Part shown: positions 1,977 to 62,905 of the stretch, piece by piece
How the letters are laid out: each line of letters begins with the position of its first letter
Position numbering within the stretch: the stretch's first letter is position 1
Sequence record: MT119360.1
DNA length: 64,000 nt
Reading direction: 5' to 3' (one strand)
Source: Enterococcus phage nattely
The notes under the pieces: model-generated
Databases searched by the model: none
Told to the model about the DNA's origin: nothing
Seen by the model: the letters and a program-made list of their open reading frames with translations, nothing else
Translations under genes and position numbers: made by a program

Positions 1977-3553
1977 GCACCATGGAGTTAACATTAAATC
2001 CGACAAGAGCGATTTATAATTTTTTTGGCTCTGTAATGAAATCACCGGAAATTTTGAAAGCACCTGAAATTATTTTAGGTGACCGTGATTTTGTTCAATC
2101 ATTTCATAAAATTGTTTATGCAGCATTGAATAACATTATTTTTAGTAATAGAGATAATATTAGTGATATTAGTCCAATTGATGTGGATAATTATCTTGCT
2201 AAGTATCCAAACTATTATCGAGTTTGGGAAGAAAATAATGGTGTTGAATATTTAAATAATGCAAAACAAGTTTCAAACACTCAAATTGCGACAAAAGACT
2301 ATGAAACAATTAAAAAATTTAGTTTATTAAGAAACTATGTTGAAAATGGTATTGATGTTTCAGATATTTATGAATATGATAGCAATGATTTAGGAGCATT
2401 AACAGAGAGTAATAAAGTATTAGAAAATACAAGTATCAACGAAATTATTGAACATTTCACACAAAAAGCAATTGAGATTCGAAATGAGTGGAATGTTGAT
2501 GATGGGAAAGTTAAAGATTTTAAAGCTGGTGATGACTTAGATGGACTTTTGGATCGTTTAGTTGAGAACCCAGATTTAGGTTTTCCATTTCAGAACTTAA
2601 TGTATAATACACTTTTTCGTGGAATGCGCAAAGAGAAATTTATGTTGAGATCGGGTGCAACGGGTACTGGTAAAACTAGACAAGCAATAAGAGATATGGT
2701 ATCAATTGCTTGTGATAAAATTTGGGTCACAGGATTAGGTTGGAAAAGTTTGGGTCCTTCATTTCCAGCATTGTTTATATCAACCGAAATTGAACAAGAA
2801 GAATTACAAACAATTATGTTAGCATATTTAACTGGAATTCCAGACTCTGATATTAAAAATGGTAACTATGATACGGCAACACGTAAGAGATTAGAAGAGG
2901 CAATTGAGATTTTGAAGAAAGCGCCTTTATTCATGACTTACATTGAGGACTTCTCAATCAGTGATATTGAAATGAAAATTGAAGAGTATATTGTCAAAGA
3001 AAACGTACAATATGTTGCATTTGACTATGTTCAAATGACGCCAAAATTGAGTAAAACAATGAATGATAATTTTGGAACAACTTTGCGTGAAGATCAAATT
3101 TTAGTTCATTTTTCGTCAGCATTAAAAGGTATTGCTGGTCGTTATGGAATTTTTCTTGAAAGTAGTACACAATTAAATAGAGGTAGTAAAGAAATCGAAA
3201 ATCGTGATGCATCTTCACTTCGTGGAGGTTTAGCGACAGCTGATAAGGTCGATTATGGTATTTTAACATTTAAAGTTTCTCAGAAAGAAAAAGATGGATT
3301 AAAACATATTTTGCAGCAAGGTTTTGGTGGAGATATTCAAAAAACACCGGATTTTTCACATTGGGTTTATAAAAATCGTGCTGGTTTAGACCATGTTGTA
3401 ATTTGGACAAAAATGAATTTGGGAACAATGCGTGAAGAAGTATTATTTGTAACTGATTATGATTTTAATTTAATTGAGATAAATGGAACTGAAATTGAAT
3501 TTGAAAGTGTTGATACAATGCCAGAAGAAATTGAAAATGTTCCAGTATTTTAG
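1973..3553 (+). CDS. DnaB-like replicative DNA helicase
   Basis: Walker A RSGATGTGKT in the C-terminal RecA-like domain after an N-terminal helical domain; 526 aa. Confidence 0.75.
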   Translation: MSTMELTLNPTRAIYNFFGSVMKSPEILKAPEIILGDRDFVQSFHKIVYAALNNIIFSNRDNISDISPIDVDNYLAKYPNYYRVWEENNGVEYLNNAKQVSNTQIATKDYETIKKFSLLRNYVENGIDVSDIYEYDSNDLGALTESNKVLENTSINEIIEHFTQKAIEIRNEWNVDDGKVKDFKAGDDLDGLLDRLVENPDLGFPFQNLMYNTLFRGMRKEKFMLRSGATGTGKTRQAIRDMVSIACDKIWVTGLGWKSLGPSFPALFISTEIEQEELQTIMLAYLTGIPDSDIKNGNYDTATRKRLEEAIEILKKAPLFMTYIEDFSISDIEMKIEEYIVKENVQYVAFDYVQMTPKLSKTMNDNFGTTLREDQILVHFSSALKGIAGRYGIFLESSTQLNRGSKEIENRDASSLRGGLATADKVDYGILTFKVSQKEKDGLKHILQQGFGGDIQKTPDFSHWVYKNRAGLDHVVIWTKMNLGTMREEVLFVTDYDFNLIEINGTEIEFESVDTMPEEIENVPVF

Positions 3554-15276: not shown

Positions 15277-15290
15277 TATTTTTAGAAAAA

Positions 15291-15325
15291 AGACTGTTTA
15301 CAAAACAGTCTTTTTTTGATATAAT
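15291..15325 (+). promoter_or_regulatory. terminator hairpin with -35 in its loop, then -10
   Basis: agactgtttacaaaacagtct hairpin 15291-15311, T7 run, TTTACA 15297-15302, 17 nt spacer, TATAAT 15320-15325. Confidence 0.65.
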
Positions 15326-18300: not shown

Positions 18301-19213
18301 ACAATTAATGGTAAATTTTGTTATGTATGTAGAACCATTTAAACAAAAATTGTCAACTTCAGTGATTCCAAAAATTGCACATTTAATTCCAGATAAATAT
18401 AAAGATGCAAAAGAAGCATATTTCTTTTTGAAAGAAATTAAAAGTAAAAAAGTTCATGATGAATATACGGAATATTTCTTTAATAATTTTAAAGAAGATT
18501 GTGATAAAAAAGTAACTAAAAAATATCCAGAATCATATACCTATAATGATAATGGGAATTTTATAATTGAAATTAAAGTTTTAGAAAAAGTTGTAAAAGA
18601 TAGAATGGAAAAATTAAAAGAATGGTTACAAACAGAAGACGCACTAAAAGCTGAAGCTTCACTAAGAAGAAGTGCATATTGGCAAAAATATTGTTTAGGA
18701 ACAATATCTCACTGGGAAATGGAATCAATCACATTCTATATTTCACAACATGAGTTAGAAGAATATCCAATTCATTCATTTTTCGAATTATCTAATTTCA
18801 ATGAATTACCGAGAGAGCCAGAAGTTGATGGTTGGAATAATGGACGTGGTGGTAAAAAATGGCCAAAATATAAAAGTCATGTAATTGCGGGAACGGTAAT
18901 TGACACACTTCCACAAAAAGGTATAGTTACTTTAATCACCAAAGACGGTGTTGTTGATGTTCGTGTTGGAAAAGGAAAATATCAATATTATAATAAAAAG
19001 ATCATGATTGGACAAGGTAAAGAACGTGTTAATATTGATGATACATGGTGGAAACGCGGAAATATGGTAGTTGTTGTTGGTTACCGTAGAGAAAATGATT
19101 TTTATGCTAATGCAAAAAATAGTGCATATCAACATTCAGTTATGTTAATTAAAGGACATGATGGAGAAAAAATATTTTTACAACAAGAAAAAAGAAAAGT
19201 TGAAGAAGATTAA
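15359..19213 (+). CDS. DNA polymerase III alpha-type replicative polymerase (DnaE/PolC family, N-terminal PHP domain)
   Basis: PHP motif HNHSHFS; 1284 aa, architecture of bacterial Pol III alpha. Confidence 0.8.
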   Translation: MSWFSIHNHSHFSNFRLRDATNAPQDILRVANEKGLKGIVLSDHETIAGAPTFLDNAKKMKEEGKLPEDFVAAIGNEAYLIDRKYEEPMKNQEKVRYFHFLMVAKNQRGFEFLKKQTAKAWENSTYSRGMERVPTFKDDLQELMKEYKGDVIASTACIGGELPQLILKLEEFQKSGDALRIETTKREIHYFIQFLVETFGHDNVFFELQPSKQNEQLIVNKWLPKIAKAYNIKCIVTTDAHYLTLEQQEFHKQYLQASEGEREVESFYATTYIFSYDELLEYFDKELLDELCENTLIIRDMVNNELKYKHETVIPRSHIPHFEQDENVMQKIDETKYPNIYKMMRSSVIEDRYYHFKVMKGFVEKEQEFNDENLSRIDLEYSELQAISEQLNQPMTSYFLAMTEFVDIMWEYSLVGVGRGSAVCYYTNYLLDIVQLNPIKYDLPYWRFLSREYVGEFPDIDVDAQGSERANIIEGVKEKFGHENVLNIGTYTTEGPRAASLTACRAFGLDPDTAQNITNAIPSDKGFAWPLQDAFFGNEKEHRKPDKQFIYMVNEYPGLQELMLQSQGLVSGRGQHASGVVVFPDGYTSLNTMMKTSKGLPITQWDAHTTEVAGGIKYDFLSINALDRIRAAIDMLLKDGKIEWQGSLQETFNKYFHPDVLDMESQEMFDMLFNGEIISAFQFEAKTGRQALEKINARTFDQLVAANSLMRLSSDGEQPIDKYIRYKNDLNEWEKDMDEYNLTEDEKAVMHELLDKKFGVCEVQESIMKIAMHEKVAKYNLREAKGLRKASAKKDPTIQVKQKELFFKKGRENGTSDNLLNYIWNECYVPTFGYSFSEPHVAAYTMILMIEMNIAYRYGVHYWKAACLNVDAGIIGELEAGTKYGKVAKALSNFREDVIPPSVNKSDIGFTPDQNTGKIMYGLKPIVGMNSKLAKQIIEGRPYKNMQHFIDHNVINGDLTNTKMVTLIKSGLFDELYPNRKQLMVNFVMYVEPFKQKLSTSVIPKIAHLIPDKYKDAKEAYFFLKEIKSKKVHDEYTEYFFNNFKEDCDKKVTKKYPESYTYNDNGNFIIEIKVLEKVVKDRMEKLKEWLQTEDALKAEASLRRSAYWQKYCLGTISHWEMESITFYISQHELEEYPIHSFFELSNFNELPREPEVDGWNNGRGGKKWPKYKSHVIAGTVIDTLPQKGIVTLITKDGVVDVRVGKGKYQYYNKKIMIGQGKERVNIDDTWWKRGNMVVVVGYRRENDFYANAKNSAYQHSVMLIKGHDGEKIFLQQEKRKVEED

Positions 19214-19282
19214 GAGAAGTGTTTACACTTCTCTTTCTTTTTGATATAATATAAATATAAAATTAATGAAAGAGGTTAGAAC

Positions 19283-25372: not shown

Positions 25373-25394
25373 AAAAATAAAAAAAATATATAAA

Positions 25395-25429
25395 AGGCTG
25401 TTTACAAACAGCCTTTTTTGGTTTATAAT
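25395..25429 (+). promoter_or_regulatory. terminator hairpin with -35 in its loop, then -10
   Basis: aggctgtttacaaacagcct hairpin plus T6; TTTACA 25401-25406; TATAAT 25424-25429 (17 nt spacer). Confidence 0.65.
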
Positions 25430-25925: not shown

Positions 25926-26027
25926 TTTTAAAAAATATCATAAAGGCTGTTTACTTTTCAGCCTTTATGATATATAATAAATACATGATAAACAAACAAA
26001 ACAAAAAATAGAAAGTAGGAAATTAAA

Positions 26028-26375
26028 ATGACAAACTTATTAAACGAAAACGAAACTCTAGCAGTGAAAATCTTACGAGATAATTTACTTTATGATTATC
26101 AAGGATTAGTAAATGGAATTAATGATGGTGAAATTGAAATGCAAGAATGGTTAGATAATTTCGATTATAAAATTTTAATTCAATCAGCAGAACAAGAATT
26201 TAATAAAGCATACAAAAATGGATATTTAACAAACAATATGAATGGTACTACACTTGAAATTAAACATATTAATTTCTCTGGTAAAGATAAGAAAAAATTA
26301 ATTTTTGAAACCGCGGCTGCACTAGCATTTATCAAACTTGATAATAATTGGAAAATTGGAAATTTATTCTTCTAA
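26028..26375 (+). CDS. hypothetical protein
   Basis: ORF with AAGTAGGAA RBS. Confidence 0.5.
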   Translation: MTNLLNENETLAVKILRDNLLYDYQGLVNGINDGEIEMQEWLDNFDYKILIQSAEQEFNKAYKNGYLTNNMNGTTLEIKHINFSGKDKKKLIFETAAALAFIKLDNNWKIGNLFF

Positions 26376-26379
26376 AATG

Positions 26380-26421
26380 TTTACAATCTACTGTGGATAT
26401 GATATAATATATCCACAGTAG
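26380..26421 (+). promoter_or_regulatory. sigma-A promoter whose -10 box sits between a perfect 13-bp inverted repeat (candidate operator)
   Basis: TTTACA 26380-26385, TATAAT 26403-26408; IR ctactgtggatat 26388-26400 / atatccacagtag 26409-26421. Confidence 0.55.
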
Positions 26422-26452
26422 TAATTAATCAAAATGAATGGAGCGTATATTA

Positions 26453-27088
26453 ATGAACAAATTATTTTTATTAAACACAGAAAACGGTATTAAAAAAATT
26501 AGCATGTCGTACAACGATCTTTATGATCATTTTTTCAATATGATTCAAAATGAAACTTGGAAAATCACTAGAGTTTATTCTAATAGTATTGATAGAGATG
26601 AAGTAGAGCAGCAGTTCACAATCGAGTTATGGTACGCATTTGAAAATTATGATATTTCAACTGGTAACTGTATTTCAACATATATCTTCCACAGATTTAA
26701 AAAAGCAAAACGCGATTTATTATATCCTGTTCTGCAATCTAAACGCAATAAATGGAAAAATTCAAATGTTTCTTCATTAAATGTAAAATTAAGTGAAGAC
26801 GATAAATATGATTCTTCAAATAAAAAATTTGAAAATGATGAAACATATCAACAAATGGAGAGCAATGGCGCAGAAGCTTTATTAAATGATGAAGCATTGG
26901 TTGATTTAATTTTATCACATTTTAAAACTGATTCAGAATTAGATTTAATTAGAATTTTAATAGATAAGAAAAATTTTAGTGTTGTAAAATATGCAGAAAA
27001 ATATTCAATTTCACGCGTGGCGGCAAATAATCGAGTTAAAAAAATGAAAGAAAAAATGGCAGAAATTTTAATAAATGAATGGTTATAG
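26453..27088 (+). CDS. sigma-70 family (ECF-like) sigma factor, candidate late-gene sigma
   Basis: region-2-like EQQFTIELWYAFENYD...YIFHRFKKAKRDLL and region-4 HTH ELDLIRILIDKKNFSVVKYAEKYSISRVAANNRVKKMKEKMAE. Confidence 0.55.
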   Translation: MNKLFLLNTENGIKKISMSYNDLYDHFFNMIQNETWKITRVYSNSIDRDEVEQQFTIELWYAFENYDISTGNCISTYIFHRFKKAKRDLLYPVLQSKRNKWKNSNVSSLNVKLSEDDKYDSSNKKFENDETYQQMESNGAEALLNDEALVDLILSHFKTDSELDLIRILIDKKNFSVVKYAEKYSISRVAANNRVKKMKEKMAEILINEWL

Positions 27089-27103
27089 TGGAGGATAAGT
27101 AAT

Positions 27104-27316
27104 ATGAAATACAAATGGATAGAAAAAGGAACTCGCTTCAACAATAAAGATTATTTGTTTTCAATAGAGGAATCTGACTATTACAACGCCGTTTTAGTTA
27201 CGTGTCAGTATGGCTCTTATGTAACGCAAGCATTAGTAGAACCATCACAAGAAGCTTATTGGTCTGAAACTTTAGACGAGATGAAAGAATTATTATATAA
27301 TAAAAATTATAATTAA
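27104..27316 (+). CDS. hypothetical protein
   Basis: ORF with GGAGGA RBS. Confidence 0.45.
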   Translation: MKYKWIEKGTRFNNKDYLFSIEESDYYNAVLVTCQYGSYVTQALVEPSQEAYWSETLDEMKELLYNKNYN

Positions 27317-27329
27317 AAGAGGGATAAAT

Positions 27330-27491
27330 ATGACAGTAGAAGAATTATACAATAAATTAGGCGAAATGCTAAAATCAGAAGAAGTTTACAATCATTCACG
27401 TGTTTGGATTGATCGCGGAACAAACACTTATGATACACTTGAAAGAGCGACGTCTGATATCGATAATGATTTAATATTAATAGTAGATTAA
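27330..27491 (+). CDS. small protein, paralog family member 1
   Basis: 53 aa, below the ORF-track cutoff; MTVEELYNKLGEMLK; RBS AAGAGGGA. Confidence 0.45.
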   Translation: MTVEELYNKLGEMLKSEEVYNHSRVWIDRGTNTYDTLERATSDIDNDLILIVD

Positions 27492-27513
27492 AAAAATAAA
27501 AGAGGGAAAATAA

Positions 27514-27711
27514 ATGACTGTAGATGAATTATATAAAAAATTAGGTGAAATATTAGAAAAAGGTGAAGTGAGAGAAAGTTCGCCAGTTTGGTTTATTGGT
27601 GGTGATGATGAATTAGTGTCTGTTGAAAATTTAGAAATTGATAATGATGGAGATATAATTTTAACTATGTGGACTAAAGAAGGACTATATAAAAGTAAAA
27701 GAATGGTATAA
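27514..27711 (+). CDS. small protein, paralog family member 2
   Basis: MTVDELYKKLGEILEK; same RBS context as member 1. Confidence 0.5.
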   Translation: MTVDELYKKLGEILEKGEVRESSPVWFIGGDDELVSVENLEIDNDGDIILTMWTKEGLYKSKRMV

Positions 27712-27723
27712 GGAGAGAATGAA

Positions 27724-27933
27724 ATGATCTTAAAAAGCTTTTTAATCACAGTTTGCATATTTTTATTTGTTGGTTTAATTATTGGTTTAGTTGAAGGATA
27801 TGATAGATTGCAAAGATATATTAAATGGCGTTGGAATTTTGATATTGGGCCCTGGTTTTTATTTTTAATAATTTTCTTAGGATTTTGGTTCTTAATATAT
27901 GGAATTGTTCAAAGTGGCGGGTTTACATTTTAG
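27724..27933 (+). CDS. small membrane protein (two TM helices)
   Basis: two hydrophobic helices. Confidence 0.45.
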   Translation: MILKSFLITVCIFLFVGLIIGLVEGYDRLQRYIKWRWNFDIGPWFLFLIIFLGFWFLIYGIVQSGGFTF

Positions 27934-27982
27934 TCCTTATATGATATAATATAAAAAAGATATAAAGAAAGAGGTAATATAA

Positions 27983-28144
27983 ATGAAAGCAATGGATTTG
28001 TATCGTAAGCTAGACAAACTAATTAAAGATAAAAAAATTGATGAATTAAGTAATGTATATTTTCTTGACACTCCGGGAATATACGCAGAAATGGAAAAAG
28101 TAAAAGTTGATGAAGATAAAGATTTGATTTTGGAGGAATTTTAG
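27983..28144 (+). CDS. small protein, paralog family member 3
   Basis: MKAMDLYRKLDKLIK...DEDKDLILEEF, related to members 1 and 2; below the ORF-track cutoff. Confidence 0.4.
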   Translation: MKAMDLYRKLDKLIKDKKIDELSNVYFLDTPGIYAEMEKVKVDEDKDLILEEF

Positions 28145-30073
28145 ATGGCTGATAAAATTAAAAAATTAGATGATCGCGCACAAGCTAGGGAAAAACTGAG
28201 CATATGGTATGGCTCACGTGATAATTTTTATCACGGTGTAAAGGAGCTTATTGCAAACGCTGCAGATGAACTTAGAAATCACTCTAGTGAACCTGGTAAA
28301 ATCGAAGTTACTTTATCCAATAATAATAAAAGAATTATGGTTAGTGATAATGGTAGAGGCATTCGTATTGGTGGCGAAACAGACGGTGAAAAAAATTATG
28401 ACTTATTATTCCGTACACTATTTGCAGGAACAAAATATGATGTTACCGAAAATGTGACAACCGGAACTAATGGAGTTGGAACAACCGTATTAAATTATAC
28501 TTCAAAATTATTTGCTGTTATGTCACATTATGATAACAAAGTTCATAAAGTACGTTTCATTAATGGTGGAGAACTAGATGGTGAATATATGGAAAAAGAT
28601 ATGAGTGAAATTGAAAATGCTCACGGTTCAACTTTTGTTGTTGAACTTGACGAAACAATTTACACACATACTCAATTTGACCCTAATCATATCAAAGAAA
28701 TTGTCAAACATTTTGCTGTGGCTTCACCAGGTATCGAATATCGTTTTGTTCATGATGAAACAGTTACAAAATTTAAATATGAAGGTATTCGCGATCGTTT
28801 TGATGAATTAATTGGAACAACTACAACGTCAGGTATTTTCACACTGGGCGAAGTAGAAAATACTAGTGAGGTTCCACAAATTGACGGGGAGGTAGTAGTT
28901 GAAAAAAACAAATATAATATTGTATTAACAACCTCACCGGACACGCATCAAGAATCATATTTGAATATGACATGGTTAGAAGAAGGTGGCGCAATTAATG
29001 ACGGGGTTTTAGATGGTGTTCGTTTATATATGAATAAATATTGTCGAGCTAAAAAATTATTCCCTAAAAAAGTGACTGCTTTTAATAAAGAAGACATTGA
29101 AAATTCACTATCGTTTATCACTGTGGTTGAATCAAACATTGTTGAATTTAGTAACCAAACAAAATTAAGTACAAATAAGAAAAAATATAAAGATGAAGTA
29201 AAAGTATATATTGAAAATTTATTAACAGCAATGGAAGCACAACAGCCGAAAGAATTCAATAAATTTGTTGATCATTTGTTAACTGTCCAAAAGGCAAATG
29301 GCGCAAACGATCGTGCTCGTCAAAAATTGAAAAAACAATTGACGGAAAAAGTGACTGGAATTGGCAATAAGATTGAAAAATTAATTGATTGTGAAATTCA
29401 TGGATTAGATGCGGAACTATTTTTAACAGAAGGTGATTCAGCGAATGGATCGATTGTTGATAGTCGGGATGATCATTTTCAAGCTGCATTTCCATTGCGT
29501 GGCAAAGTGTTAAATGTTTTACGCGCTTCACCTGAAGATATTTTCAAAAATAAAGAAATTGTAAATATGATCAAAATTATTGGAACTGGAATTCAATTTG
29601 GTAAAAAAGATGATTTTGATATTGATAACTTACGTTTTGGAAAAATTATTATTACAACAGACGCAGATGCAGATGGTGGACATATTATGTCACTATTAGT
29701 TGCATTTATTTATCGGTTTATGAAACCATTATTGGAAAAAGGACATGTGTACGTTGCACAAACACCATTATATGAATTGAAATTTAGTGATGATTCAGTA
29801 GTTTACTTTTTAACTGAAGATGAAAAAAATAAAAATATTGGCAAATATGAAGGTCAAAAATATACTATTAATCGTCTAAAAGGATTAGGTGAAGTTGATG
29901 CTGAAACAATGGAAGCAACAACTATGAATCCAAAAACCCGTAATCTTATTCAATTAACAACAGAAAAAGCAGAAGATTTTCTAATGATTGATAAATGGAT
30001 GAACGATGATGTTGAACCCAGAAAAGAAATGATTAATAATCAACTTGCAAATTATGTTCACGACATTGATTAG
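28145..30073 (+). CDS. type II DNA topoisomerase ATPase/TOPRIM subunit (GyrB/ParE-like, T4 gp39-like)
   Basis: GHKL ATPase N-terminus; TOPRIM EGDSANGS and DADADGGHI motifs. Confidence 0.8.
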   Translation: MADKIKKLDDRAQAREKLSIWYGSRDNFYHGVKELIANAADELRNHSSEPGKIEVTLSNNNKRIMVSDNGRGIRIGGETDGEKNYDLLFRTLFAGTKYDVTENVTTGTNGVGTTVLNYTSKLFAVMSHYDNKVHKVRFINGGELDGEYMEKDMSEIENAHGSTFVVELDETIYTHTQFDPNHIKEIVKHFAVASPGIEYRFVHDETVTKFKYEGIRDRFDELIGTTTTSGIFTLGEVENTSEVPQIDGEVVVEKNKYNIVLTTSPDTHQESYLNMTWLEEGGAINDGVLDGVRLYMNKYCRAKKLFPKKVTAFNKEDIENSLSFITVVESNIVEFSNQTKLSTNKKKYKDEVKVYIENLLTAMEAQQPKEFNKFVDHLLTVQKANGANDRARQKLKKQLTEKVTGIGNKIEKLIDCEIHGLDAELFLTEGDSANGSIVDSRDDHFQAAFPLRGKVLNVLRASPEDIFKNKEIVNMIKIIGTGIQFGKKDDFDIDNLRFGKIIITTDADADGGHIMSLLVAFIYRFMKPLLEKGHVYVAQTPLYELKFSDDSVVYFLTEDEKNKNIGKYEGQKYTINRLKGLGEVDAETMEATTMNPKTRNLIQLTTEKAEDFLMIDKWMNDDVEPRKEMINNQLANYVHDID

Positions 30074-36372: not shown

Positions 36373-36415
36373 TTTACAAAATGTTCTCACTATGATATAA
36401 TATTATCATAGTGAG
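36373..36415 (+). promoter_or_regulatory. sigma-A promoter with the -10 box between a 10-bp inverted repeat (candidate operator)
   Basis: TTTACA 36373-36378, TATAAT 36396-36401; IR ctcactatga 36386-36395 / tcatagtgag 36406-36415. Confidence 0.5.
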
Positions 36416-36450
36416 ATATAAATAAAAAAAAAAGAAAAGAGGAACATATA

Positions 36451-51362: not shown

Positions 51363-51614
51363 TTAAAAGAAACTTACTTTATCGATTGGTACTAAACCAA
51401 CTGCTTCGGCTTTTCCTTTAGCCAATTTTTTCTTACGTCTTTTAGCTGCTTTTTCGTCTTGCATTGCAACATGAACTTCAGCTAGGTCATTTATTTTCTC
51501 CATAGAGCTATCCCAGAATTCTTCTTCTGTTAACCCGATAACTTTTCGTCCTATATAATATAATTGAGACCAATCAAAAGTTACGGGCTCAGCTGGGTGT
51601 ATTTGTCTTTCCAT
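51363..51614 (-). CDS. tail assembly chaperone, T-like downstream ORF
   Basis: overlaps the upstream chaperone ORF in the +1 frame, directly upstream of TMP. Confidence 0.5.
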   Translation of the reverse strand: MERQIHPAEPVTFDWSQLYYIGRKVIGLTEEEFWDSSMEKINDLAEVHVAMQDEKAAKRRKKKLAKGKAEAVGLVPIDKVSFF

Positions 51615-51921
51615 CAGCTCCTAACAAATCTGTTAGTGCCTCTGATAAGCGTTCTAAATCGTCAATGCCGATAATATCTCCAACTTGTTCAGTTGTGAAA
51701 TTTTTTCCAGGGTTACCAGCATTTAGTGCTGCAGTTGCAATCGCGATCATAGATTCAATTTGTCCGTCTTGAATTTCTTCTAATGCTTTATTAATATCTC
51801 CATATTGTTTTTCTAAAAAATATAATGCGTTTAAGTTAAATTTTAATGTTAAAGTTTGGTCGATTCCTGAAAGATAAATTGATTTTCCTTCATTTTTTAA
51901 ATTGTGTGCTGAGACTACCAT
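51589..51921 (-). CDS. tail assembly chaperone (gpG-like)
   Basis: 110-aa acidic protein between tail tube and TMP. Confidence 0.55.
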   Translation of the reverse strand: MVVSAHNLKNEGKSIYLSGIDQTLTLKFNLNALYFLEKQYGDINKALEEIQDGQIESMIAIATAALNAGNPGKNFTTEQVGDIIGIDDLERLSEALTDLLGADGKTNTPS

Positions 51922-51956: not shown

Positions 51957-51973
51957 TATATTATATATAAGTA
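51957..51973 (-). promoter_or_regulatory. candidate late-promoter motif (minus strand ACTTATATATAATATA)
   Basis: plus-strand 17-mer tatattatatataagta is identical to the one at 62792-62808 upstream of the late operon start. Confidence 0.4.
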
Positions 51974-51999
51974 AGTGAGCACTTTTTTATAAGAATATA

Positions 52000-52035
52000 A
52001 AAAAAAATTAAGGAGAATCGAAAAAGATTCTCCTT
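52000..52035 (-). terminator. rho-independent terminator after the tail tube gene
   Basis: minus strand aaggagaatctttttcgattctcctt hairpin followed by a T8 run. Confidence 0.6.
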
Positions 52036-52043
52036 AAAATTAA

Positions 52044-60988: not shown

Positions 60989-61026
60989 AAGTAAACCTCC
61001 AATTAGATAGCTTTTATTAAGCCAAA

Positions 61027-61098
61027 CAGGTCGTAGAAGATTCGAACTCCTATCACTTGGGTTGGAGCCAAGTATGTTACCAATTACACCAACAACCT
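61027..61098 (-). tRNA. tRNA-Trp (anticodon CCA)
   Basis: folds by hand: acceptor AGGTTGT/ACGACCT (7 bp incl. G-U), U8, D-stem GTGT/ACAT, D-loop with GG and A14/A21, anticodon stem CTTGG/CCAAG with loop CTCCAAC (U33, CCA, A37), T-stem AGGAG/CTTCT, T-loop TTCGAAT, discriminator G; no encoded CCA. Confidence 0.6.
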
Positions 61099-61299
61099 AT
61101 GTGAAACTAAAAAGTTTCACTAAAAAAGAAAAAAAAGGAAGTTATGACTAGAAAAGTAGAAAGTAGAAAGGTGTTCAGAGAACACAATGATAGCCAATCG
61201 GAATCGCACCGATTCAAAAAGGCTTGTCAACCTTAATGTCTACTAAGAAGCTACCGCATTTAATGTTCCACCTTTAATGGCAGCGGGACGCCAATTTTA

Positions 61300-62216: not shown

Positions 62217-62633
62217 TTATAAATTAAACGAATCGTCAACTGGTGGCTCCCAATCAAAATCGATACCATTTAATCCTAGTTGAATATTGCAAGTCTTACA
62301 TAAAGTTATAATATTATCTTCTTCAAATGTTAATTCCGGATAATAAATACGTGGCTTAATGTGGTGAACTTGTAATTGATCACCATTAATAATGTTGTAT
62401 TTAATATAGCAACGTTGGCAAATATGATTATCTCTTGCAATAATTCTTAATCTTAATTTTCTCCATCTTCGAGATTCTAATGGTTTTAAAGTTTCAATAT
62501 TTTTTCTTCTGTATTCTCGACGTCGAGCATTTGACTCTTGTCTTGCTTTTTCTTTTCCAGGACAATTATGTTTAGAATCTGCTATTTTGCCGCAATATCG
62601 ACAGATCGTTTTTCTCTCCGGCATTTTCAGCAA
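62217..62633 (-). CDS. HNH endonuclease (packaging-associated)
   Basis: CRYCGK...C...HHIKPR...CKTCN zinc/HNH motif, immediately upstream of terS. Confidence 0.75.
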   Translation of the reverse strand: MLKMPERKTICRYCGKIADSKHNCPGKEKARQESNARRREYRRKNIETLKPLESRRWRKLRLRIIARDNHICQRCYIKYNIINGDQLQVHHIKPRIYYPELTFEEDNIITLCKTCNIQLGLNGIDFDWEPPVDDSFNL

Positions 62634-62760
62634 TCAACTCCCATTCTAAATCTAAATTGTCGTCATGGATGTTAATTTCAAATCCACAATTTGGACATTC
62701 ACTAACATTAAAATAATCTATTTTTGACCAACAATTTGGACATTCAATTAAATTTTCCAT
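62572..62760 (-). CDS. small zinc-ribbon protein
   Basis: CPNCWSK...CPNCGF double CxxC; first gene of the late block. Confidence 0.4.
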   Translation of the reverse strand: MENLIECPNCWSKIDYFNVSECPNCGFEINIHDDNLDLEWELIAENAGEKNDLSILRQNSRF

Positions 62761-62791: not shown

Positions 62792-62808
62792 TATATTATA
62801 TATAAGTA
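62792..62808 (-). promoter_or_regulatory. candidate late-promoter motif (minus strand ACTTATATATAATATA) at the start of the structural block
   Basis: 17-mer identical to 51957-51973; lies in a divergent control region. Confidence 0.4.
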
Positions 62809-62832
62809 TTACACATGTTTTTTATATATTTT

Positions 62833-62865
62833 TTCAAAAAATGTTTACTTTTTTCATGAAACATG
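62833..62865 (+). promoter_or_regulatory. sigma-A promoter for rightward early genes (TTTACT-17-TATAAT) with palindromic spacer
   Basis: gtttacttttttcatgaaacatgatataat; spacer contains tcatgaaacatga. Confidence 0.55.
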
Positions 62866-62905
62866 ATATAATTTAATTATACTAAAAGAAGTGAGGTTGT
62901 TTAGA

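Follow-up and report, generated by a model that had tools for sequence, protein, structure and literature searches.

A SigN-family sigma factor and a two-copy candidate late promoter element in Enterococcus phage nattely

We analysed a 64,000-nucleotide stretch of Enterococcus phage nattely (sequence record MT119360.1; hereafter the window), and in particular an open reading frame (ORF) on its + strand at 26453-27088 and a 17-nt sequence that occurs twice on its minus strand. The window is AT-rich (GC about 27-37%), with + strand genes from position 1 to about 37,200 and minus-strand genes from 37,215 to 62,760. An earlier note on this DNA had described the product of the ORF as a sigma factor and had proposed that it recognizes the minus-strand repeat, which lies ahead of two late gene blocks. 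The observation itself was confirmed and the interpretation partly supported, in that the identity of the sigma factor and the motif, which is bipartite, both hold. The link between the two was not supported by our comparisons; the only experiments on an ortholog point the other way, and the link appears less likely.

The ORF encodes 211 amino acids (aa); an upstream ATG at 26438 would extend the product to 216 aa, and every annotated ortholog uses the 211-aa start position. From hidden Markov model (HMM) and profile searches, structure prediction and synteny, the product is identified as a two-domain sigma-70-family protein, with sigma2 at approximately residues 1-100, a disordered linker at 101-145 and sigma4 at 146-210. 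The best NCBIfam match of the single sequence was TIGR02937, the sigma70-ECF (extracytoplasmic function) model (E=1e-6, residues 29-210), at a score of 28.3 bits, under the 42.9 cutoff, and thus the threshold of the ECF model was not reached. Pfam Sigma70_r2 (PF04542) was matched by the window protein alone with E=0.0098, under the gathering score, and FliA/WhiG and C-terminal helix-turn-helix (HTH) models gave further matches that were weak but consistent. Profiles were more informative. A profile of 10 close homologs matched FliA region 2 in the PDB (E=3e-5), and an exhaustive profile search defined a family of 124 representatives. A 61-member family profile matched SigA region 2 (E=1e-15) and FliA (E=4e-12), a colinear stretch of SigA region 4 (i-Evalue 0.02) as well as SigB region 4, and the ECF sigma factor SigW (PDB 5wur) over its full length (E=2e-9). 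Individually, 43 of the 61 members contained PF04542, and just 4 contained PF07638. A motif of the FSTY... type is kept in the protein, its STY at residues 75-77. The AlphaFold2 (AF2) model, with a predicted local distance difference test (pLDDT) score of 73.6, has two helical domains at 1-100 and 146-210 and no folded sigma3, and the linker between the two folded domains scores below 50. All of the top 50 Foldseek matches of this model in the PDB were sigma factors (probability 0.66-1.00, E=1e-3 to 9e-2).

The region 2-like and region 4 HTH segments that the earlier note had pointed out in the 211-aa protein were therefore borne out by TIGR02937, Pfam and the family profile. Its description of the protein as an ECF-like sigma factor held as to sigma factor, and did not hold as to canonical ECF; the sub-cutoff score and the relationships described below indicate that a SigN-family description fits better. 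Like ECF (group 4) sigma factors such as SigW, the window protein combines sigma2 and sigma4 with no folded sigma3. However, no anti-sigma gene is evident from annotation beside it, where the ORFs are small (53-115 aa) and unannotated, and its candidate promoters have a TATAAT-like -10 and not the AAC/CGT type of ECF promoters. The sigma identification is sound and not new. Orthologs in phages vipetofem, VPE25 and vB_EfKM29 are labelled 'hypothetical protein', whereas those of 9183 (53% identity) and of Geobacillus phage GR1 already carry the label 'sigma-70 family RNA polymerase sigma factor' and that of phage Planchet 'ECF RNA polymerase sigma factor'. The entries for vipetofem, VPE25, VFW and related phages that read 'hypothetical protein' can accordingly become sigma factor.

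Over positions 26000-30000 the window shares 97.7% identity with Enterococcus phage vipetofem (genus Vipetofemvirus, Andrewesvirinae); the figure falls to about 89% for VPE25, VFW and vB_EfKM29 and to about 76% for 9183 (Denvervirus). Window position x corresponds to approximately 64122-x in vipetofem, and about 21 kb of the phage falls outside the window. When plasmids were searched by tblastn with the window protein, the sole finding was the 'sigma factor' of Bacillus subtilis pBS32-type plasmids, SigN (ZpdN), at 29% identity, 95% coverage and E=3e-18. The GR1 protein serves as a bridge, with 61% identity to SigN and 29% to the window protein. Gene order is also shared: in the window, 9183, GR1 and pBS32, the genes for guanylate kinase, RusA, the sigma factor and, further along, the topoisomerase subunits follow one another on one strand. 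The opposite strand of pBS32 is a late operon that runs from a Zn-ribbon protein through HNH, terS, a tRNA, terL and portal on to lysin and integrase, and the layout of GR1 (loci L008 and L009) is the same as that of pBS32 (loci L012 and L013). The plasmid and the phage are syntenic end to end, the minus-strand late operon included. Because homology is full-length, synteny is shared and pBS32, like the other genomes, holds a single match of this kind, the comparisons identify ORF 26453-27088 as the positional ortholog of SigN. They also place the lytic enterococcal phages, GR1 and pBS32 in one syntenic lineage. TerL homologs of about 65% identity are found as well on 84-97-kb Bacillus and Priestia records, and from the synteny together with these homologs pBS32 looks like a whole plasmid-prophage of the enterococcal-phage type.

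Burton et al. 2019 had already pointed out a SigN homolog in VPE25 (PMC6751061). Their work established SigN as a sigma factor by in vitro transcription and mapped 19 promoters of its regulon, with the consensus ATTTACGTTTT-N7/8-CCAGATATAAAT; these are TTTACG-N16-TATAA(A/T) promoters of the TTTACG/CAGATATAA form, and they drive gyrase, nucleotide-synthesis, exonuclease and DNA Pol III genes and sigN itself (PMC6751061). The prophage structural region of pBS32 is largely free of SigN promoters, and the structural-operon promoter PzpbK was described as 'pBS32 dependent but SigN insensitive' (PMC6751061). SigN beats SigA in competition for core RNA polymerase (RNAP) and is intrinsically toxic (Burton et al. 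2023, PMC10601692), and Burton et al. considered it a possible separate subclass of sigma factors. The window protein resembles SigN in being about 200 aa long with sigma2 and sigma4 homologous over 95% of the length, in occupying the same genomic slot, between guanylate kinase and RusA on one side and the topoisomerase subunits on the other, and in being preceded by a promoter of the replication-arm class. However, regions 2.3/2.4 differ (RFKKAKRDLLY vs. KLRKGVRNATY), in keeping with an overall identity of only 29%. In both systems the promoters have a -35 with TTTAC and a -10 with GATATAA, whereas the window has TTTACA, a 17-nt spacer and TG, compatible with SigA, and pBS32 has TTTACGTTT, a 16-nt spacer and CCAGA. 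Unlike pBS32, the enterococcal phage is strictly lytic-looking, without LexA-type control, and instead a private palindrome brackets the -10 of its sigma promoter.

Candidate early promoters were abundant on the + strand. We found 27 cassettes of the form (G)TTTAC(A/T/G)-N16/17-(TGA)TATAAT-ATAAATATAAA, in which TTTAC is invariant and TATAAT is mostly preceded by GA; 26 lie on the + strand within 1-37,200 and one at 62844. The -35 elements of the 26 (773-36401, + strand) start at 773, 1412, 6472, 8044, 8246, 8892, 11825, 15005, 15297, 19222, 19894, 20055, 21960, 24750, 25401, 25699, 25950, 26380, 27922, 30091, 32993, 33835, 34626, 35748, 35846 and 36373. The remaining one (TTTACT-N17-TGA-TATAAT, 62844-62872, + strand) is a divergent early-type promoter that serves the + strand genes from 63035. 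Promoters of the TTGAC[AT] type were found nowhere in the window. The rest of vipetofem contributes 13 further cassettes, and 9183 has about 27. In the window they precede Pol III, topoisomerase and nucleotide-metabolism genes and the sigma gene, the slots held by SigN promoters in pBS32 and GR1, and their TTTAC and GATATAA match the SigN consensus, although spacer length and flanks differ. A sequence related to that consensus, (G)TTTACA-N17-TGATATAAT, is present in 27 copies in the window. GR1 contains the exact SigN consensus, with more than 20 copies on the + (early) strand and none on the late strand, whose motif is different. Because of the 17-nt spacer and the TG extension, the SigA of the host should also read the cassettes.

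The promoter of the sigma gene (26380-26421, + strand) belongs to the same class (TTTACA-N17-TGATATAAT): its -35, TTTACA, is at 26380-26385, followed by a 17-nt spacer and TGA-TATAAT, with the -10 at 26403-26408. A 13-nt inverted repeat, CTACTGTGGATAT/ATATCCACAGTAG at 26388-26400 and 26409-26421, brackets this -10; the promoter is identical in VPE25, and the palindrome is absent from 9183. A second inverted repeat, CTCACTATGATA/TATCATAGTGAG, brackets the -10 of the promoter at 36373 (36373-36420, + strand) and is found also on the sigma-gene promoter of another clade (L049, 545-600). Such private inverted repeats on single promoters look like operators for repressors. The early promoters form dispersed terminator-promoter cassettes of about 60 nt (e.g., 25390-25415, 15285-15312 and 19212-19235), in which the TTTACA often falls inside the hairpin of the terminator ahead of it, in the loop or the 3' arm. 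Downstream of the -10 there are three near-identical families, TATAAT-ATAAATATAAAT, TATAAT-AAATATATAATAAATAAAC and TATAAT-ATATTTATAGTTAAT, and this near-identity suggests that the cassettes spread by duplication or recombination.

On the minus strand, the 17-mer TACTTATATATAATATA occurs exactly twice in the window, at 62808-62792 and 51973-51957, as the earlier note had reported. Both copies have TATAAAAAA (box 1) upstream, across a non-conserved 9-nt gap, and the whole forms a 35-nt bipartite element. Box 1 ends 17 nt ahead of a perfect TATAAT, i.e., in the -35 position. The two elements very probably represent late promoters, which we call P_L1 (62792-62826, minus strand; box 1 at 62826-62818, TATAAT at 62800-62795) and P_L2 (51957-51991, minus strand; box 1 at 51991-51983, TATAAT at 51965-51960). 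P_L1 stands back-to-back with the divergent promoter at 62844. Its first ORF, 31 nt downstream, is at 62572-62760 (minus strand) and encodes a 62-aa protein resembling a CxxC...CxxC zinc ribbon; by ortholog annotation HNH (62633-62217), terS (62210-61713), tRNA-Trp and terL follow on the same strand. P_L2 lies directly downstream of the intrinsic terminator of the major tail (tail tube) gene (52008-52037, minus strand; 12-bp stem and T-run). The ORF 35 nt downstream of P_L2 (51589-51921, minus strand, 110 aa) occupies the tail assembly chaperone position according to the 9183 annotation, and the tape measure gene (51347-47529, minus strand) is next. The gene order thus agrees with the contexts previously given for the two copies, at the start of the HNH-terminase block and between the tail tube terminator and the chaperone and tape measure genes, and a TTTACA -35 is indeed absent from both. 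It would appear that the late sites retain the phage-type -10 (TATAAT and an A/T-rich start region), with box 1 in place of the TTTAC -35.

A third, 'looser' copy had also been proposed upstream of ORF 61569-61300. This sequence, ACATAATATATAACAT at 61621-61606 on the minus strand, needs an indel for alignment, lacks box 1 and has no statistical support, and we rejected it as a member of the motif. We likewise did not count as a promoter class a 'class B' arrangement of a terminator followed by TTTACATATAT, for which there were 3 matches vs. 5.7 expected; TTTACATATAT stands directly after the terminator hairpin at 38227-38217 and 55371-55361 (minus strand), and similar sites occur in 9183. The tRNA-Trp (anticodon CCA) at 61026-61099 on the minus strand lies between terS and terL within the late operon, and relatives have one or two tRNAs at this position.

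The late element recurs in relatives, at the same two positions in VPE25, 9183, L014, L051 and L052. In VPE25 both sites are identical to the window. In 9183 and the IMG/VR contig L014 the element reads TATAAAAAAAT-N6-ACAWTGGCTATATATTATAGAGA, with exactly two copies genome-wide in 9183 and the same two positions in the L014 locus. Both positions are also occupied in the metagenomic contigs L051, by ATCTATRA...ACCTATATATAT (box 1 ATCTATGA), and L052, by GTGTCAC...TATGTAATATATACTATAG. GR1 has TTCGTACA-N7-CCATWTATRTATATTAWTWATTAGAGAG at the operon head and in one internal copy. This second GR1 copy (63498, minus strand) is flanked by a stop codon and by a terminator hairpin of which its TAGAGAG forms part; it may not be a working promoter and was not used as support. 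At one or both sites in 9183 and L051 the -10 is TATATT or TATTAT and not TATAAT. Because the -10 half is nevertheless alike in all genomes compared while the box at the -35 position is clade-specific and common within each genome, the pattern is the one expected of promoters recognized by a phage-encoded specificity factor that co-evolves with them.

Other repeats were noted in late regions. Certain late genes are preceded, 10-20 nt before the ribosome-binding site, by a 7-5-7 inverted repeat, ATAAAAT-N5-ATTTT(T)AT, which is conserved between the enterococcal phages, GR1 and pBS32 and was noted in the window (54336-54319, minus strand), in L005 (about 29100, minus strand) and in L018, L039 and L053; it could be the site of a dimeric regulator or a small hairpin in the 5' untranslated region. 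A more distant relative, the 97.6-kb contig L029 (portal 39% identical), has a perfect 18-bp palindrome, TTGAATATTAATATTCAA, at 3317 and 13544 on its + strand. These copies are intergenic, flank the portal gene and are about 10.2 kb apart, a spacing like that between the late sites of the window, and the palindrome looks like a late control site of the operator type.

A second conserved regulator deserves consideration beside the sigma factor. The gp028 protein of vipetofem (345 aa; NC_055834 70537-71574; minus strand of locus L006, 7038-8075) has its gene about 7 kb before the start of the window and homologs in 9183 (62% identity), GR1 (34%) and pBS32 (35%, WP_009968632, 45549-46583), the VPE25 ortholog being orf_22. 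It is labelled 'sigma factor' (PHROG 5767). Neither a Pfam search nor a single-sequence PDB search with gp028 gave a match, its AF2 model (pLDDT 72) gave no significant Foldseek match, and only a C-terminal HTH of the GerE/LuxR type was found by the profile of gp028-like proteins (E=0.0035). We therefore set the sigma label aside and treated gp028 as a putative regulator. It is a plausible candidate for a late-operon activator that is plasmid-dependent and SigN-independent, and as a possible reader of the late box it is as good a candidate as the sigma factor. Across the IMG/VR relatives, presence or absence of the factors could not be used as evidence, because seed-based detection was incomplete and missed the pBS32-like gp028 homolog.

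Published transcript data from VPE25 (Table S2A, PMC7064774) bear on the order of expression. Both the sigma ortholog (orf_79) and the gp028-like protein (orf_22) are early transcripts, highest at 10 min, and all of the minus-strand genes, orf_105-130, climb together between 10 and 40 min (Table S2A, PMC7064774). We attempted to divide the + strand cassettes into early and middle classes from the z-scores of these data and abandoned the division as too noisy, there being two replicates and row normalisation. The only clear contrast is between early + strand genes and late minus-strand genes.

How much the 17-mer repeat means depends on its location. Whole-window shuffles contain about 13 repeated 16-mers, so an exact repeat of that length is not surprising, and with up to 3 mismatches tolerated the whole window has 7 matches vs. 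4.8 expected. By these figures the repeat might be a chance product of TA-rich, low-complexity DNA, or the relic of a duplication, with no regulatory role. However, each copy stands between genes on the coding strand, 31-35 nt ahead of a start codon and with box 1 at fixed spacing, and in each of four diverged clades a separate two-copy version occupies these two positions. A common word of at least 17 nt turned up in only 3 of 2000 dinucleotide shuffles of the late-strand intergenic DNA (1.5 kb), and for the bipartite pattern 0.58 chance matches are expected even with 3 mismatches allowed. We consider an origin by chance highly improbable. If the two sites are promoters, they could be read by the SigA holoenzyme of the host through TATAAT, aided by an activator bound to box 1 or by template amplification, with the phage sigma factor acting mainly in host shut-off or early-gene boosting. 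The perfect TATAAT at both sites would suit SigA, a conserved protein with a GerE-type HTH is at hand, SigN is toxic and a strong competitor of SigA (PMC10601692), and Burton et al. allowed that the increase in prophage expression on pBS32 might reflect the rise in plasmid copy number alone (PMC6751061). However, displacement of SigA by the phage sigma factor would inhibit late transcription just when it is needed, a site with neither TG extension nor -35 match should be very weak alone, and the -10 departs from TATAAT in 9183 and L051. Reading by SigA is thus unlikely in our view.

The proposal of the earlier note was that the phage protein is a late sigma factor acting at P_L1 and P_L2. In the form weighed here, sigma2 would read an extended -10 (TACTTATATATAAT) and sigma4 would read box 1, so that RNAP leaves the early strand for the genes of structure and lysis. 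Several features are as this proposal would have them: the late sites lack the TTTAC -35 and TG extension present at every early cassette, box 1 is exactly 17 nt from TATAAT, and in VPE25 the sigma gene is early and the minus-strand genes late. Phage sigma factors such as SPO1 gp28/gp34 and T4 gp55 typically drive later gene classes. Moreover, in a comparison of four clades the recognition helix of sigma4 varied with box 1: SRVAANNR accompanies TATAAAAAA in the window and 9183, SRMGANKR accompanies ATCTATRA in the clade of the 79.6-kb contig (L051), and TRQAANQR accompanies TTCGTACA in GR1, the helix of pBS32 SigN being identical to that of GR1. However, the HTH helix of the gp028-like proteins follows the identical clade pattern (LYQTxIPRI, LRQTIVKNI and IVRT-MEII), and for this reason the co-variation does not discriminate between the two as readers of box 1. 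The sigma4 helix of the window is also only 2-3 conservative changes from that of SigN, and yet TATAAAAAA is unlike TTTACGTTT. The structural-operon promoter of pBS32 is insensitive to SigN, the regulon of which is the replication arm (PMC6751061), and GR1, with a sigma factor close to SigN, has the SigN consensus on the early strand only and a different late motif. It follows from GR1 that something else already reads the late promoters of the lineage, and the sigma factor must be assumed to have taken on a new task in the enterococcal branch if it is to read them. We therefore regard a late sigma factor as doubtful, although worth keeping in mind.

The reading that we prefer, tentatively and with a little less than even confidence, is that the sigma factor serves the TTTAC/GATATAA cassettes and that recognition of the late box falls to another phage factor, perhaps acting jointly with the sigma factor. 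The sigma factor would bind core RNAP in competition with host SigA and would transcribe the TTTAC.../GATATAA-type cassettes of replication, nucleotide-metabolism and topoisomerase genes, its own gene included. In the lytic lineage, SigA could also start these cassettes, given their 17-nt spacer and TG. Box 1 of the late promoters would more likely be read by another phage factor, for which the 345-aa gp028-like protein with its C-terminal GerE/LuxR-type HTH is the leading candidate. The nearest experimental precedent suggests as much, in that the sigma factor of pBS32 drives promoters of replication genes and not late ones. Parsimony also points to a reader other than the sigma factor, because the late promoters of GR1 and pBS32 are not of the SigN type and the SigN regulon lies on the other strand.

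Several points weigh against this preference. The early -35 stays TTTACA in the SRMGANKR clade while the sigma4 helix varies with box 1, and co-variation of this kind with a fixed early -35 is what the late-sigma proposal predicts. The + strand cassettes are near-perfect SigA promoters (17-nt spacer, TGnTATAAT) that may need no phage sigma factor, and if they are self-sufficient for SigA, the sigma factor is left free for another job. The precedent itself comes from pBS32, a defective element of another host whose SigN shares just 29% identity with the window protein. No fold could be recognised in the N-terminal 270 residues of the gp028-like protein, and the role given to it here is guesswork. 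Lastly, all promoter assignments in this phage were made from sequence.

Better-known phage systems offer comparisons. As with the sigma factors of SPO1 (gp28 and gp33/34) and T4 (gp55), the window protein appears to be an early-made relative of sigma-70 that would redirect host core RNAP in competition with the primary sigma factor of the host. However, no specific sequence relationship to them was detected, and those factors read promoters very unlike those of the host, whereas the candidate targets here keep a host-like -10. The late element also resembles T4 middle promoters, with sigma appropriation by MotA/AsiA, and the sites of class II activators of the GerE/LuxR type, in that a standard -10 is combined with a factor-specific box at the -35. 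A phage protein with a sigma4-like (GerE) HTH is on hand in this lineage, although there is no homology to MotA or AsiA, and any binding of the gp028-like protein to box 1 would be purely hypothetical.

Speculatively, and we think it rather improbable as a whole, late transcription may depend on a two-factor switch common to the lineage, in which lytic enterococcal phages (e.g., VPE25) and plasmid-prophages of Bacillus (e.g., pBS32) stand at the two ends. The SigN-type sigma factor would supply recognition of the -10 and displace host SigA, and the GerE/sigma4-like HTH of the gp028-like protein would replace recognition of the -35 at P_L1 and P_L2, in a manner resembling sigma appropriation. 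If true, such a switch would account for the parallel changes in box 1 and in both proteins and would name the 'pBS32-dependent, SigN-insensitive' activator of the pBS32 structural operon. SigN has so far been characterised on a defective plasmid-prophage, where the host is killed and no phage particles have been seen. The window presents the same sigma factor in the same slot in a productive and genetically tractable group of lytic phages that includes VPE25, a model enterococcal phage of therapeutic interest, and its two-copy late element with clade-specific variants of box 1 is ready-made for swaps. The system makes it testable which factor activates the SigN-insensitive structural operon, and whether the role of a SigN-type sigma factor in a real infection is host shut-off, the driving of replication genes or the late switch.

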